Source: Escherichia phage vB_EcoM_G2248
Sequence record: MK327932.1
Length of the DNA: 64,000 nt
Direction: 5' to 3' (one strand)
Under the pieces are notes generated by a model that was given only the letters and a program-made list of their open reading frames with translations, ran no database searches and was not told the DNA's origin. The translations under genes and the position numbers were made by a program. Positions 49,088 to 54,926 of this stretch are shown here, in pieces. Position 1 is the stretch's first letter, and each line of letters begins with the position of its first letter.

Positions 49088-50578
49088 ATGGCAGATTTGA
49101 AACATGGATCTACTGTAGGCGGATCTCCCATTTGGACGCAAGGAAACTTGACGATCCAGCCAGCGGGGGACCAGCTTTTCTATAAAGGTCATAAAATCTA
49201 TACTGCGTTTGACAAGCCAACGGCGGAAGATTCTGATTCCGTCAGTGCAACCGAAGGTGGTACATTTCAGAAACTGGTCCATTTTGAGGAAGGTTTAAGC
49301 GTAGGTAGCGCATCCGGTGGAGAAACCAAAAAGAACGGGATCTTTAAAGGCAAGAGTGATGCTGCTAACTTTGATGGTGTAAGTTGGGGTTTGCATTCGT
49401 GGAAATCCATCGGTTTTGTTAATGCTCGTGATGATGTTATCATGGCTTATATTGACACTACCACAGGTGATTTTAAAACTAAAGGGACCATCGAAGGGAC
49501 AACCATTAAAGACACTGGTCAACGCGTCTATAGCCCTGTTAATAAGCCGACGAATAATGATTTAGATTTGGTGTCTCGTCGCGGTGATACTCTCACAGGA
49601 ACATATAACTTAAACACTGTCACTGTTAAACTATCGGTTGATTCGAAATTAATTGCAAGGGGACGTGATTTAATTAATTTTGATGCGACTAAGATCTATT
49701 ATGGTAACGTTCTTGATACGTTGGTATTCCGTAGCAAAGATGAGCCTACCATTTTTGTTAATGGCAAAGAAGGTCGTTTTTATCACACCAACAATAAACC
49801 AACTAAAGCCGATGTTGGACTAGGTAATGTCACCAATGATGCACAGGTTAAACGTGCTGGTGATATTATGGAAGGTAACTTGCAAGCGCCTAGAATGTTG
49901 GCGACAAACGATCCTGCTGGTCCGAATGAATTGGTTCGTTTGAGCTACTTTGAGAAAAAATCAATGGTAGCAAATCCAACAATCATTGGAAACGTTGATT
50001 GGAACACTCTTATTAATCGCGGTATCTATCGTGTGGAAAATGCTGGATCAGGTACTAATAAACCGTCTGATAGCTATTATAACGGCGTTTTGATGGTATA
50101 TCGCCCAGAAGATGCGGTCGGTACTCGTCGAATTGTTCAGGTATACTATCCTGAATCTATTGATCATCCGATGTGTTGGCGTTCTTGTTCTAATGAATCA
50201 TGGACCGCATGGAACTATGTAGATCACCGTAAATTGGCTGATGCTCGCTATGTTAATGTGACTGGCGATACCATGACGGGTGCTTTGACAGTTCCCGCTG
50301 CAAACGGCGTTCGTACAGCAAAAGCCAACTATAATGGTGATAATTGCTACGCTGGACTTAATAGCTTAGATGGTACAGCAATGATTCATCGTGTTAGCGA
50401 TATTAAAGCGCACGAGAAACTAGGCATCACACATGATTCTAAAATTATTTTCGTTAAATCCCGTGACAATACTCAGGACACCGATACATTTGAATTATAC
50501 CACGAAGGACACAAACCAACTCCTGATGATGTTGGTGCTGTTCCGCTTAATGCGGTAATTGATTTTGGTACTTTCTAA
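49088..50578 (+). CDS. 36: long tail fibre distal subunit gp36 (enlarged, 496 aa)
   Basis: N-terminus MADLKHGSTVGGSPIWTQGN matches T4 gp36 start; internal fibre repeats (NKPT...GDTxTG). Confidence 0.85.
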   Translation: MADLKHGSTVGGSPIWTQGNLTIQPAGDQLFYKGHKIYTAFDKPTAEDSDSVSATEGGTFQKLVHFEEGLSVGSASGGETKKNGIFKGKSDAANFDGVSWGLHSWKSIGFVNARDDVIMAYIDTTTGDFKTKGTIEGTTIKDTGQRVYSPVNKPTNNDLDLVSRRGDTLTGTYNLNTVTVKLSVDSKLIARGRDLINFDATKIYYGNVLDTLVFRSKDEPTIFVNGKEGRFYHTNNKPTKADVGLGNVTNDAQVKRAGDIMEGNLQAPRMLATNDPAGPNELVRLSYFEKKSMVANPTIIGNVDWNTLINRGIYRVENAGSGTNKPSDSYYNGVLMVYRPEDAVGTRRIVQVYYPESIDHPMCWRSCSNESWTAWNYVDHRKLADARYVNVTGDTMTGALTVPAANGVRTAKANYNGDNCYAGLNSLDGTAMIHRVSDIKAHEKLGITHDSKIIFVKSRDNTQDTDTFELYHEGHKPTPDDVGAVPLNAVIDFGTF

Positions 50579-50645: not shown

Positions 50646-53600
50646 ATGGCAGATTTACAGAGAATCCAATTTAAAAGAACAAGTACGGCAGGTCGCAAGC
50701 CGGATGCGAATATTCTAACTCCGGGTGAACTTGCTATTAACCTAGCGGATCGAGAACTATATACAAAAGATGACAGCAATAATGTAATTACTTTGGGACA
50801 GTTTCGCGGTGAATTGCCATCTGATGCAAATTTAGATAATTATGGACCTACTGGTAAATTTACTGGCATTTGGTCTAAATCAACTTCAACCAACGCTCAA
50901 CCAACGCATAAATTCCCAGAAGAGAATGCTGTAGGTGTATTAGAAGTATTTGTGGCTGGCCAATTTGCTGGTACTCAGCGATATACAACTAGGTACGGTA
51001 ACGTCTTTATTCGATCTTTGTCTGCTAAATGGAATGGTGTTGATGGTCCGTGGGGTGTGTGGAGAAATATTCAATCCGGTACTCGTCCATTGTCAACCAC
51101 AATTGATCTTAATGATCTAGGTGGCGCGGAACATTTTGGTTTGTGGCGGAATAGTTCAAATACCATTGCTACCTTTGACAGAAATTTCCCAGAAGAAGGA
51201 TCGTCCGCTCAAGGACTTTTAGAAGTATATGAAGGTGGAAACTATTCTCGCACACAGAGATATACGACCAGATTTGGTGTTGTTTATACTCGTTGTCTTG
51301 CTGCTGCGTGGGATGCTACTGCTCCTAAATGGGGACCGTGGCAACAAGTCGGTAACGTCACACCAGCGACTTTCTATGACGGAAACCTGAATGATTTTAA
51401 AACTCCTGGGTTATATAATATTTTAGGCACTGATGCCGTTATTAACTGTCCTACAGGTGAAGGTTTGCCGCCTGTTATTGTTGGTTTACTGGAAGTTAAA
51501 CAGCGTGCTTCCGGTGGTGCTATTTTCCAAAAATTTACTACTGCCGGAACGAGTGCAACTACTCGCGGACGTATTTTTGAGCGTGCATATACTGGTGGTG
51601 CGTGGGGAGCATGGAACGAAGTATATACATCTTATTCTCTGCCAATTACTTTGGGTATGGGTGGTGTTAAATCTCAATTAACAGAGTTAGATTGGCAAAC
51701 ATTTGACTTTATTCCTGGTGGGATGTATAGCGTACCGCTGAATAAAGTCAAGAACATGCCAGCAAATATGGATTGGGGAACGATTGACGGTAACTTAATT
51801 ATGTTATCCGTTGGACCTAGTGAGCATACCGGAACAGGTCGCACCGTTCAAGTTTGGCGTGGTACTGTGACACAAGCTAACTACCGTTATTTTGTCGTTC
51901 GTGTTGCTGGTAATCCGGGAAATAGAACTAATACCGTTCGCCGTGTTGTTGTTGAAGATGGTCGCCACACATGGACGGCGCAGCAAGATTTTAATGGCGC
52001 TGTTAATTTCGGCGGTTCGACCGTATTTAAATCAACTACAACATTCAATACAGAAGTTAAATTCCGCTCATCTAATGCATTTAAAATGTACGGCGGTAAA
52101 TTTGGTACAATTTTCCGTAATGATGGTGAAAGTCTTTATATTCTTTCCACCGACGAAGATGATCAAGATGGAAACTTTAACACAAATAGACCTTTCCGGT
52201 ATCAATTCAAAACTGGTGATGTTACTTTAGGTGGAACTAGCGGTGCTGATATTTTAAGATTAAAAAGTAGTTCGCTTGCTGCTACCTTTGGTGGTGATGT
52301 TAACTTAAGTAAAGGTACATTGACGTTTGCAGCTGGTGGTAAGCAATCACGCGATTACTTCCGGTTTAATCATTGGGGTGATAGCAATAACGCTCGTGAT
52401 AACATTATTCAGTTAGAAGATAGTAAAGGCGCTCATTTTTCCACTGAACGTACTTTAGCGACGGGTGCAATTAAAACTAAATTCTTTGGTGAAGTTGAAT
52501 CCGATGGTCGATTGACTATTAAACGTCCGGGTGATGCTATTGTATTATCGACTACAGCTAGCAACGCTTTGCATATTCGCGGCGATGTTGATGGAAACAA
52601 TAACTGGTATATTGGTAAAGGTGGTGCTGATAATTCACTAGCATTTTATAGCTATGCAACTCAGGCTGGTATACACATCACGAATAATGGCGAGATAGCA
52701 CTTGCGCCACAAAATTTTAATAATGTTAGTATTAGCAAAGACCGCATCTATATCAACGCTACACAGTGGGTTGCTAATCATTCTGGTGCGTGGGATGGGC
52801 AATGGCGCGAAGAAGCACCTATCTTTGTTGATCAGGGTAGTGTTGGAGAAGATAGCTATTATCCACTTATTAAAGGACATAGCCAGATCACAGGTCAAGG
52901 TTATTCTACTAAGGTTGATTTTGGCTTACGTCGTACTCCCCAAACATGGGGACAAGCTGTTATTCGTGTTGGTTCTGCGGAAAACTCTCCGGCTTCTGGA
53001 CGCCCTCAAGGAATATTTGAGTTTCATGCTAACGGAACTTCATATTCTCCTAAAGTTAAAACCGAAGCACTTGCCATCGGTACAGAGTCTATTTGGGGAT
53101 CGCCACATTTAGTTCTCGGTGATAATGACACTGGCTTAATGTGGGGTGGTGATGGACGTATTAACCTGCTTGCTAACGGACAGCATATTGCATCATGGGG
53201 TGTTTTCCATCAAGAACATCCTGGACTATGGTCTGTCGGTGCTGGGTTATGGACAGAAGTCGATAAAGCGATTATTTCTCATGGTCATTTGATTCAGGCG
53301 AATGACAACTATTCGACATATGTTCGTGACATTTATATCCGTTCTGATATTCGCGTGAAGAAGGATTTAGTTAAATTTGAAAATGCATCACAGACACTTT
53401 CAAAAATTAATGGATATATGTACCTTCAAAAGCGAGGATTAAATGAAGACGGTAGCGAACGATGGGAGCCTAATGCTGGTTTGATTGCTCAGGAAGTTCA
53501 ATCCATTTTGCCGGAACTAGTTGAAGGTGATCCGGTTGGTGAGAATCTTCTTCGTTTGAACTATAACGGCGTTATTGGTTTAAATACTGCTGCAATCAAC

Positions 53601-53690
53601 GAACACACAGAAGAAATTTCACTTCTTAAAGAAGAAAATAAACTTCTTCGTGATCGTCTTGCTGCAATTGAGGCTAAATTATTTGGTTAA
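50646..53690 (+). CDS. 37: long tail fibre distal subunit gp37 with C-terminal intramolecular chaperone (peptidase S74-like) domain
   Basis: N-terminus MADLQRIQFKRTSTAGRKPDANILTPGELAINL as in T4 gp37; C-terminal ~130 aa (DIRVKKDLVKF...GYMYLQKRG...LKEENKLLRDRL) resembles autoproteolytic chaperone domains. Confidence 0.85.
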   Translation: MADLQRIQFKRTSTAGRKPDANILTPGELAINLADRELYTKDDSNNVITLGQFRGELPSDANLDNYGPTGKFTGIWSKSTSTNAQPTHKFPEENAVGVLEVFVAGQFAGTQRYTTRYGNVFIRSLSAKWNGVDGPWGVWRNIQSGTRPLSTTIDLNDLGGAEHFGLWRNSSNTIATFDRNFPEEGSSAQGLLEVYEGGNYSRTQRYTTRFGVVYTRCLAAAWDATAPKWGPWQQVGNVTPATFYDGNLNDFKTPGLYNILGTDAVINCPTGEGLPPVIVGLLEVKQRASGGAIFQKFTTAGTSATTRGRIFERAYTGGAWGAWNEVYTSYSLPITLGMGGVKSQLTELDWQTFDFIPGGMYSVPLNKVKNMPANMDWGTIDGNLIMLSVGPSEHTGTGRTVQVWRGTVTQANYRYFVVRVAGNPGNRTNTVRRVVVEDGRHTWTAQQDFNGAVNFGGSTVFKSTTTFNTEVKFRSSNAFKMYGGKFGTIFRNDGESLYILSTDEDDQDGNFNTNRPFRYQFKTGDVTLGGTSGADILRLKSSSLAATFGGDVNLSKGTLTFAAGGKQSRDYFRFNHWGDSNNARDNIIQLEDSKGAHFSTERTLATGAIKTKFFGEVESDGRLTIKRPGDAIVLSTTASNALHIRGDVDGNNNWYIGKGGADNSLAFYSYATQAGIHITNNGEIALAPQNFNNVSISKDRIYINATQWVANHSGAWDGQWREEAPIFVDQGSVGEDSYYPLIKGHSQITGQGYSTKVDFGLRRTPQTWGQAVIRVGSAENSPASGRPQGIFEFHANGTSYSPKVKTEALAIGTESIWGSPHLVLGDNDTGLMWGGDGRINLLANGQHIASWGVFHQEHPGLWSVGAGLWTEVDKAIISHGHLIQANDNYSTYVRDIYIRSDIRVKKDLVKFENASQTLSKINGYMYLQKRGLNEDGSERWEPNAGLIAQEVQSILPELVEGDPVGENLLRLNYNGVIGLNTAAINEHTEEISLLKEENKLLRDRLAAIEAKLFG

Positions 53691-53728
53691 TTAAAATAGC
53701 GGGGAGAAATCCCCGCTAAGGATCTTAA

Positions 53729-54025
53729 ATGGGATATTGGTTCGGTAGTGAAATTAATACTAAAATTGATGCTTTAAAGTGGCATGTTTTTGATATTCCT
53801 AATGGATATGTTCCCGGACGTGCTGGTGTTGCCGTTTTGCGGCATACCGCTCGTGATGGTTGGGGCGATATGCATATTTTCGTTGACGGTGTGGTCGCCG
53901 CGCGTCGTCGTGGTGGTGGGGATTGGGGATTTACGGTTAATGCGTTTGTTCCTGCTGGATGTACTGTCACCTTTGGTCATGGGGGTGTCGGTGGTATTGA
54001 ATACTTTAAATTTATGGAGTTTTAA
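53729..54025 (+). CDS. Gly-rich small protein, paralogue 1 of 3 (gene 38 position)
   Basis: 98 aa, RBS AAGGA; shares W..DIPNGY/W core and GGG(G)D block with next two ORFs. Confidence 0.6.
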   Translation: MGYWFGSEINTKIDALKWHVFDIPNGYVPGRAGVAVLRHTARDGWGDMHIFVDGVVAARRRGGGDWGFTVNAFVPAGCTVTFGHGGVGGIEYFKFMEF

Positions 54026-54027
54026 TT

Positions 54028-54333
54028 ATGGCTGGATGGGTTGCTGGAAGAATGGCTAATGCCATTAGCATTTATGCTAATGGTGGGTGGTTTGGTATCC
54101 CTAATGGTTGGGTGGCTGATTCATGCGGTATTGTGTCTGTTCATGCCGAAGCCGTTGGTGGCGGTGGGGACCTGGACGCAGAATTATATGTAAACGGTAC
54201 TCTCGAATCAGGTCATCACGCTGGTAATGCAGGAAGTTGGGGAGCAAGTTCTTTAGTTGGTGCTGGCGCTACTGTCAGTTTTAGTATTGGTAAAGGAAGT
54301 TTAAACCACTTCCAATTTAGGAGAATGCAATAA
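54028..54333 (+). CDS. Gly-rich small protein, paralogue 2 of 3
   Basis: 101 aa, RBS GGAG; WFGIPNGWVAD, GGGGD. Confidence 0.6.
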   Translation: MAGWVAGRMANAISIYANGGWFGIPNGWVADSCGIVSVHAEAVGGGGDLDAELYVNGTLESGHHAGNAGSWGASSLVGAGATVSFSIGKGSLNHFQFRRMQ

Positions 54334-54635
54334 TGGCATTTTGGGTAGATGGTGCTTTAGGTAATAGAGCAGGTAAAGCGAATCAAGGATGGTTTGATAT
54401 TCCTAACGGTTGGACACCTGACGCTTTCGGCACGGTTTCATTTGGTGCTCATTCTTCTGGTGGTGGCGGTGGTGACTCAGAATTGCTTTTGCATGGCTTT
54501 TGTGTGTCTGGAAGTCATAAGGGTCATGATTGGGGACAGATCCATTCTTGTATTGTGCCGCAGGGAGTAACGATCACGGTAACTACAAACAGGGGTATTT
54601 CCCATCTTCGTTATAGACGCTTGAGCAACCGTTAA
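54333..54635 (+). CDS. Gly-rich small protein, paralogue 3 of 3
   Basis: 100 aa, RBS AGGAGAA; WFDIPNGWTPD, GGGGGD. Confidence 0.6.
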   Translation: MAFWVDGALGNRAGKANQGWFDIPNGWTPDAFGTVSFGAHSSGGGGGDSELLLHGFCVSGSHKGHDWGQIHSCIVPQGVTITVTTNRGISHLRYRRLSNR

Positions 54636-54686
54636 AAAGAATTAAGGAAACCTCCCACGGAAGGGAACTACTAAGGAGAAACGGCT

Positions 54687-54926
54687 ATGGTCTATAATAT
54701 CGTCATTGGTGCTTTGTCTAATTTCGGAATGAAACTATTGTCAAAGTTAATTAGTGAAAAGATGCTCACTAAAATTTTCTTCTATTGCGCTCGTCGTCTT
54801 GCGGCTTATACCAATACGCCAATTGACGATCGTTTCGTGGAAGAACTTTATAAGGAGTTTAATAAAGATCAGTCAGAAGATAGCAACGAGCAAAATAAAA
54901 ATGGTGATAGTCAAGTACCTAAATAA
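54687..54926 (+). CDS. hypothetical protein
   Basis: 79 aa, RBS AAGGAGAA. Confidence 0.45.
   Translation: MVYNIVIGALSNFGMKLLSKLISEKMLTKIFFYCARRLAAYTNTPIDDRFVEELYKEFNKDQSEDSNEQNKNGDSQVPK

Follow-up and report, generated by a model that had tools for sequence, protein, structure and literature searches.

A three-gene module in the gene 38 position behind the predicted self-cleaving long tail fibre protein of Escherichia phage vB_EcoM_G2248: a candidate receptor-binding cap

Results

Genes and features of the locus

The DNA studied here, called the window below, is a stretch of 64,000 nucleotides (nt) from Escherichia phage vB_EcoM_G2248 (MK327932.1). It carries the gene of gp37, the distal subunit of the long tail fibre, followed by three small paralogous open reading frames (ORFs a, b and c) that occupy exactly the place of the gene for the gp38 adhesin in related phages, between gp37 and an ORF of the family phrog_402 (Table 1). 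Residues 900-1014 of gp37 are very probably a Peptidase_S74 intramolecular chaperone (IMC). We also propose, with a probability of roughly 0.45, that a, b and c, co-transferred and translationally linked, replace gp38 as a heterotrimeric receptor-binding cap, with one small protein per gp37 chain. This triple in the gp38 slot appears undescribed: neither the triple nor a heterotrimeric or TNF-like fibre tip was found in the family libraries or in the literature searched, which was thin on papers from subscription journals.

Table 1. Features of the gp37 region (positions in the window).
Feature	Position	Strand	Properties and basis
gp37, long tail fibre distal subunit	50646..53690	+	1014 residues, 111.1-kDa precursor; ORF list, PHROGs, Pfam
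Distal tip module, gp37 residues 816-899	53091..53342	+	Last strand DIYIR; phmmer match to 6f45_A residues 22-92
Predicted autocleavage site R899^S900	53340..53345	+	Alignment with the reported S16 and fPS sites
IMC (Peptidase_S74), gp37 residues 900-1014	53343..53687	+	115 residues, 12.9 kDa; PF13884 and profile matches
1-kb cassette: last 20 gp37 codons and a, b, c	53631..54636	+	blastn, T5-like contigs
GC-rich 9-bp hairpin AGCGGGGA-gaaa-TCCCCGCT	53699..53718	+	GAAA loop; between the gp37 stop and ORF a
ORF a	53729..54025	+	98 residues, 10.7 kDa; first paralog; ribosome-binding site AAGGA
ORF b	54028..54333	+	101 residues, 10.2 kDa; second paralog; ribosome-binding site GGAG
ORF c	54333..54635	+	100 residues, 10.6 kDa; third paralog

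The C-terminal chaperone of gp37

Against PHROGs, gp37 matched phrog_1699 (long tail fibre distal subunit) with an E-value of 1.5e-182, and its Pfam matches were Gp34_trimer, gp37_trimer and Peptidase_S74 only. The last of these (PF13884) covered residues 900-959 of the protein and positions 1-57 of the 58 of the profile, with an E-value of 7.1e-11 and a score of 42.7 bits, the gathering cutoff being 22. A preliminary description, made from the letters of the sequence, had seen an S74-like chaperone in the last 130 or so residues and had suggested looking for a match to this profile and for a conserved serine next to the domain; both were found. The peptide that it quoted is indeed encoded at 53298-53690 (+), which translates to ANDNYSTYVRDIYIRSDIRVKKDLVKFENASQ...LAAIEAKLFG* and forms the 3' end of the gp37 ORF. 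Thus, the C-terminal location stands, the IMC occupying the extreme end of the protein, but the domain is shorter than described, since the first 15 codons of this interval belong to the mature tip. The absence of any T4-type tip domain among the Pfam matches also agrees with the view, already expressed in that description, that the protein does not end in a tip of the T4 gp37 type.

The nearest solved relative is the distal subunit of the long tail fibre of phage S16 (6f45_A), which aligned with gp37 residues 816-1004 at an E-value of 5.5e-42, a match much stronger than chance would give. PDB 6F45 is reportedly the S16 gp37-gp38 long tail fibre tip of Dunne et al. 2018. When the IMC was compared alone, it was 55% identical to that of S16 gp37 (E-value 1.1e-31). 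A profile of seven IMCs reached 6f45 (2e-47), the ICA domain of MYRF (7dc3, 3.7e-9), the tail fibre 8jov (1.5e-6) and the released IMC of the GA-1 neck appendage (3gud, 0.023), whose chain starts with SDERHK. From the identity to S16 and these matches to solved IMC chains, we infer that the end of gp37 would adopt the three-dimensional fold of an IMC.

The predicted nucleophile, S900 (codon 53343-53345), is the first residue of the domain, and the predicted general base, K905 (codon 53358-53360), lies at +5. The same arrangement is known from the endosialidase endoNF, in which the catalytic pair is Ser911/Lys916, the serine being the first residue of the S74 domain and the lysine lying five residues further on. 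The motif of the window, DIYIR^SDIRVKK (S900-D-I-R-V-K905), aligns with DLNVS^SDRRIKK of S16 and with DVYIR^SDGRLKI, the cleavage-site sequence of the fPS phages (PMC7917993). In S16, autocleavage at this site strips the last 113 residues of gp37 and uncovers the docking surface of gp38 (PMC7917993; PMC6851490). In the alignment of the seven IMCs, the S, D, R and K of the SDxRxK motif were invariant. They are kept even between the window and the Krischvirus G2494, in which the IMC is just 29% identical.

A model of the processing can be drawn after endosialidase, T5 pb1 and S16 gp37. Three IMC copies would join through their C-terminal helices and serve as a template on which the interdigitated trimer of the tip, just upstream, folds. 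After the tip has folded, S900, with K905 as its activator, would cut its own chain at R899/S900, and the 12.9-kDa IMC would depart, leaving an 899-residue gp37 of 98.3 kDa that ends in three DIYIR strands. As the basis of these steps is strong homology to proteins that have been characterised by experiment, we hold with high confidence both this order of events and the presence in gp37 of an IMC capable of autocleavage. It is highly improbable that the domain is a decayed remnant, which would aid folding without cleaving and stay on the virion, given that the Ser/Lys dyad and the full-length domain were kept despite the divergence noted above, and that the IMC of S16, to which it is 55% identical, is reported to autocleave. 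An S74 end on a T-even-type gp37 is moreover already known, being textbook matter for T2 and S16, and is ordinary here. For annotation, the predicted mature gp37 has 899 residues, and the last 115, expected outside the virion, should be disregarded in receptor-binding prediction and in engineering.

Gene 38 in the window and in related phages

No gp38 adhesin was found in the window by tblastn with two Krischvirus gp38 proteins (best E-value 0.9), nor in the complete genome (167,943 bp) of the closest relative, Escherichia phage UPWr_E1 (best E-value 0.7). In the controls, gp38 was detected by the same queries and by the Pfam models, the gp38 of G2494 scoring 221.8 bits on PF05268 (GP38) and 70.1 bits on PF21721 (Gp38_N). 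The preliminary description was therefore right in seeing no recognisable gene 38. It went astray in taking the S74 end of gp37 to fit this absence. In the Krischviruses G2494 and FL04, a gp38 of 260 residues lies between gp37 and the small phrog_402 ORF, which is followed by the holin gene t, and their gp37 proteins match S74 at 45.0 and 42.1 bits. The corresponding scores are 55.1 bits in G37-3 and 44.2 bits in UPWr_E1, which have no gp38, and 52.9 bits in KFS-EC, which has none in the slot. All tested Krischvirus gp37 proteins thus carry an S74 end, with or without gp38 downstream, so this end does not explain why gene 38 is missing.

In the fibre of the T2/S16 type, gp38 docks by three tryptophans in three equivalent pockets after the IMC has folded the tip and left (PMC6851490; PMC7917993). 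Since an IMC of the S16 type leaves to expose the dock of gp38, the presence of an S74 end leads one to expect a separate tip adhesin and is not a substitute for one.

The window ORF next to the slot (54687-54926, +) encodes 79 residues and matches phrog_402 (function unknown; E-value 5e-20). In all the Krischviruses examined, irrespective of the adhesin module, a phrog_402 ORF separates the adhesin slot from holin t.

The a, b and c genes

Each of the three ORFs has a GGAG-type ribosome-binding site; a and b are separated by 2 nt, and the stop codon of b overlaps the start codon of c (TAATG). The three proteins are mutual paralogs with 25-42% identity, and they have in common the residues F-D-I-P-N-G-W and a glycine-rich loop. 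Across phage families, orthologs share 52-76% (a-a), 42-74% (b-b) and 63-90% (c-c) identity. Orthologs being closer than paralogs, the triplication appears to be old, with each of the three copies retained.

None of the three proteins matched a Pfam family (E-values up to 0.1) or an NCBIfam family, and hence none belongs to a C1q or TNF sequence family. Their sole PHROGs match was a weak one, of ORF a to phrog_18834 (E-value 0.0015; function unknown). A direct kinship with gp38 was rejected, as blastp returned nothing under an E-value of 0.39 and Gp38_N gave no match; GWVAGRMAN of ORF b recalls GWIGSSAAN of gp38, but over too few residues for a test. Positions that vary among close orthologs were also considered as markers of a binding surface. 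In a and b, they form loose clusters around residues 28-31 and 37-52, a pattern too weak to be used.

ORF c was the only paralog modelled. The AlphaFold2 model, obtained with an alignment of 36 sequences, is a sandwich of seven to eight beta-strands with a mean pLDDT of 82.3. Compared with the PDB by Foldseek, its top matches were cerebellin, C1QL, lymphotoxin and GITRL, at an E-value no better than 3e-3, and its matches among viral models fell on tail fibre C-terminal domains and on C1q-domain proteins. This modest fold match suggests that ORF c may be a jelly-roll of the TNF/C1q kind. Heads of the TNF and C1q kind exist as obligate trimers, and those of C1q and lymphotoxin occur naturally as heterotrimers.

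The hairpin ahead of ORF a was evaluated as an intrinsic terminator and discarded, as no T-run follows it on the + strand and the scan reported a terminator-like site on the minus strand only. A second small hairpin lies after ORF c, at about 54651-54667. In Salmonella-associated T5-like contigs (L005, 7603-8001; proteins P0029, P0032, P0039), ORF b is longer at its N-terminus by about 31 residues (MENKFINTPVKSEEIKQ...), which precede the conserved AG(H)W start.

The fibre tip and its transfer between phages

The gp37 of the window is collinear with that of the gp38-bearing Krischviruses up to about residue 808. It then continues with an extra tip module of about 85 residues, a different IMC and the triple. 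This tip module has a homologue of known crystal structure in the S16 gp37 tip, on which gp38 docks, and carries an insertion of 12 residues relative to it. It is absent from the gp37 of G2494 and FL04 and is found in fibres of two T5-like contigs, L010 and L013. These two contigs match window positions 52600-54636 at 83-85% DNA identity, and their fibres share about 60% identity with gp37 residues 466-1014, the S16-like tip included. Four further T5-like contigs (L009, L011, L012, L014) are 94.7-95.3% identical to the 1-kb cassette over about 1007-1021 nt. T5-like phages are the probable donors of positions 52600-54636.

The triple was found with at least three types of tip, each ending in D(I/V)YIR. 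The end of one T5-like tip that precedes the triple, ...GNGNFNDVYIR^SD, is essentially that of the G2494 tip, ...GNGSFSDVYIR^SD, which precedes gp38. With nearly the same tip before gp38 in one phage and before the triple in others, gp38 and the triple look, from these sequences, like two alternatives that partner a single platform.

The last 20 residues of the IMC helix (53631-53690; residues 995-1014, EENKLLRDRLAAIEAKLFG) are common to nearly all fibres that precede closely related triples, and they are kept though the rest of the IMC is just 30-37% identical among these fibres. The exceptions, with other IMC ends, are the Salmonella T5-like contig L005 and the distant members L015-L021. The IMCs associated with gp38 end differently, in ...ELKTPFFTKIARKISKYFKF. 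Either linkage or some functional contact may underlie the association of EENKLLRDRLAAIEAKLFG with the triple.

Distribution of the triple

The a/b/c family is small, with 38 clusters among 5.8 billion proteins and 19 matches, of which at most 16 are real, among 1.84 billion representatives. Three long proteins that could have been fused versions of the domain (P0052, P0055, P0056) were dismissed as false positives due to ankyrin, NHL or low-complexity sequence. Among 50,697 deposited phage genomes, the triple was present in UPWr_E1 and G37-3 only, with a fragment in KFS-EC. Most carriers are T5-like contigs in assemblies of E. coli (GCA_033870055.1 among them), Shigella and Salmonella, or in IMG/VR, with the order portal gene, protease-capsid fusion, fibre, a, b, c and tail genes (pb9-like, Phage_Tail_Tip). 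Of the more distant members, L015 and L016 stand after a fibre with a Phage_T7_tail N-terminus, and L017-L021 lie on short metagenome contigs.

For 25 distinct loci, counted after L016 and L021 had been merged with near-identical partners, enough sequence was available: 3 in Krischviruses, 19 in T5-like contigs, 1 behind a fibre with a Phage_T7_tail N-terminus and 2 on short metagenome contigs. The gene upstream ends in S74 with the predicted cut motif ...R^SD in all 25, including L019, which has the variant motif SDLNLK and for which just the motif and the aligned downstream sequence were inspected. In 24 of the 25 loci, the fibre gene is followed by intact a, b and c; in the remaining one, L032, no intact ORF b of 85 residues or more was recovered.

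The locus of KFS-EC (L022; MH560358.1, 4188-4614) is decayed. There, ORF a (residues 1-89) is fused, at a GG..GD stretch, to ORF c from its residue 48 onwards; a frameshift follows, and b is deleted. This chimera may have been left by recombination, or it may stem from an error in sequencing.

Some features of the T5-like carriers were noted in passing. The contigs L005-L014 hold T5-like structural modules in E. coli, Shigella and Salmonella assemblies, and no T5-like counterpart with the triple was present among the deposited phage genomes. For one of them (L012; CP148523.1, 4,556,211-4,568,507), the T5-like module lies within a 5.2-Mb E. coli record presented as a complete chromosome. A carrier state, contamination or misassembly may account for these modules. 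An ORF of 255-257 residues with a NUMOD3 domain, probably a homing endonuclease, is inserted amid the tail genes of only some of these contigs, namely L006 and L008 (about 13.6-14.4 kb in) and L013.

Phage background and neighbouring genes

The backbone of the phage is that of a Krischvirus (RB49-like, Straboviridae), with 95-96% identity across 23 kb to FL04, RB49 and others. For the fibre region, the nearest relative is UPWr_E1 (92.8% identity). Genes like those of gp35 and gp36 lie upstream of gp37, and holin t lies downstream. The gp36-like protein (49088-50578, +; 496 residues) matches phrog_16472 end to end and reaches 23.6 bits on Pfam Phage_T4_gp36, under the threshold of 26. It is more than twice as long as T4 gp36.

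Discussion

We propose the following continuation of the processing described above. The three DIYIR strands of the cut gp37 would form a docking platform, and a, b and c would assemble 1:1:1 into a pseudo-threefold, TNF/C1q-like head, anchored by their N-terminal helices, which would bind the receptor. These two steps draw on the position of the genes, on synteny, on stoichiometric logic and on the modest fold match of ORF c, and we regard the chances that they are correct as close to even, if slightly short of it. We suggest just as tentatively that fibre modules bearing such a cap are a small lineage that moves between T4-like, T5-like and T7-like phages.

The preliminary description had placed the receptor-binding region in gp37, upstream of the cleavage site. 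In one sense this holds trivially, as the IMC departs from the fibre; as for the binder itself, a, b and c would be likelier candidates than gp37. In a version of that earlier view modelled on T5 pb1, the tip of gp37 (residues of about 816-899 and those upstream) would bind the receptor, with no separate adhesin, and a, b and c would be unrelated passengers. T5 pb1, whose structure is cited in PMC9608196, is indeed processed by an IMC, after which its own tip binds the O-antigen, and this precedent weighs against a cap. So does KFS-EC, a plaque-forming Krischvirus whose S74-bearing gp37 is followed by the decayed a-c chimera, with no gp38 in the slot; the triple may thus be dispensable on some hosts. 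Host specificity could, besides, sit in the tips, since nearly the same sets of a, b and c occur on two or three unrelated tip types. Three further points count against the cap itself. Neither Gp38_N nor GP38 matched the sequences of a, b and c. In the ORF c model, the N-terminal helix (residues 4-12) is of low confidence, with a pLDDT of about 60. And W4, which we considered as a gp38-like N-terminal tryptophan "prong", is invariant in close relatives and replaced by L, M or Q in distant members, so that it is a weak hint at best. We nevertheless find it unlikely that gp37 binds the receptor on its own. Its tip is homologous to that of S16, which is a docking platform and not a receptor binder, the triple is located precisely at the gp38 position, and a triple that follows an S74 fibre gene in all inspected loci, across three phage lineages, is hard to reconcile with passengers.

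It could also be argued that a, b and c are non-structural assembly factors, absent from the virion, which act as chaperones in trans on the fibre tip or on IMC release. Chaperone genes often come right after fibre genes, as with T4 gp38 or the Tfa proteins of Mu and P2, and the joint travel of EENKLLRDRLAAIEAKLFG with closely related triples could be read in this sense. The chaperone gp25 of phage Pam3 even has a beta-sandwich domain (PMC9608196). The fibre, however, already bears a chaperone in cis, and three conserved paralogs in fixed order would be unusual for a chaperone. Furthermore, no match to Tfa or to any chaperone family was obtained in Pfam, PHROGs or NCBIfam, and a fold of the TNF/C1q kind is typical of trimeric binding heads. 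A role as chaperones in trans therefore seems to us improbable, more so than receptor binding by gp37 alone.

The host range of T-even-like and T5-like phages is usually predicted or engineered through gp38 or the fibre tip. If the receptor-binding cap proposed here is real, three proteins encoded in about 1 kb would constitute a new, compact and naturally portable specificity cassette, one that is already found, at 95% identity, in a myovirus as well as in siphovirus contigs. It would explain how Krischviruses without gp38 recognise their cells. It would also represent a rare heterotrimer on a homotrimeric fibre, and a phage fibre-tip adhesin built like a C1q head and encoded separately from its stalk.

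Comparison with known systems

The T4-type gp37 ends in its own receptor-binding needle, with gp38 as a chaperone together with gp57A, whereas the gp37 of the window ends in S74. It is closer to T2, whose gp37 is the classical case of C-terminal processing, and to S16. With S16 gp37 it shares a homologous tip module and IMC (residues 816-1004), a cleavage motif at the same aligned position and a similar IMC length (115 residues, against 113 reported for S16), and in both, IMC release would bare the end of a trimeric beta-helix. The difference lies directly downstream, where S16 and T2 encode a monomeric gp38 of 260 residues, with the three-tryptophan anchor of Gp38_N and a polyglycine sandwich, and the window encodes three paralogs of about 100 residues.

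T5 pb1 (PDB 4UW8) is likewise a fibre with a terminal S74 IMC that is removed after trimerisation. We know of no downstream cap proteins described for it. The T5-like phages that are the main carriers of the fibre and triple module have a different fibre, of 1027-1233 residues, which is followed by a, b and c. The endosialidase of K1F (endoNF), the GA-1 neck appendage and MYRF ICA belong to the same Pfam family, with serine first and lysine at +5, at the C-terminus of a trimeric beta-helical protein. Their sequences are distant, as the profile E-values of 3gud and 7dc3 given above indicate, and in the window the client domain is the tip of a T-even fibre instead of a sialidase stalk.

For the proposed cap, the closest parallels are C1q A/B/C, lymphotoxin alpha1-beta2 and the TNF-like domain of the cyanophage Pam3 fibre gp24, which the predicted jelly-roll of ORF c may resemble. 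Unlike C1q and TNF heads, a, b and c match none of the corresponding sequence families and are separate polypeptides of 100 residues, unfused to the stalk, and their heterotrimer is putative. Like C1q, however, they comprise three paralogous chains, and C1q and TNF heads are trimeric binding heads carried on a trimeric stalk.

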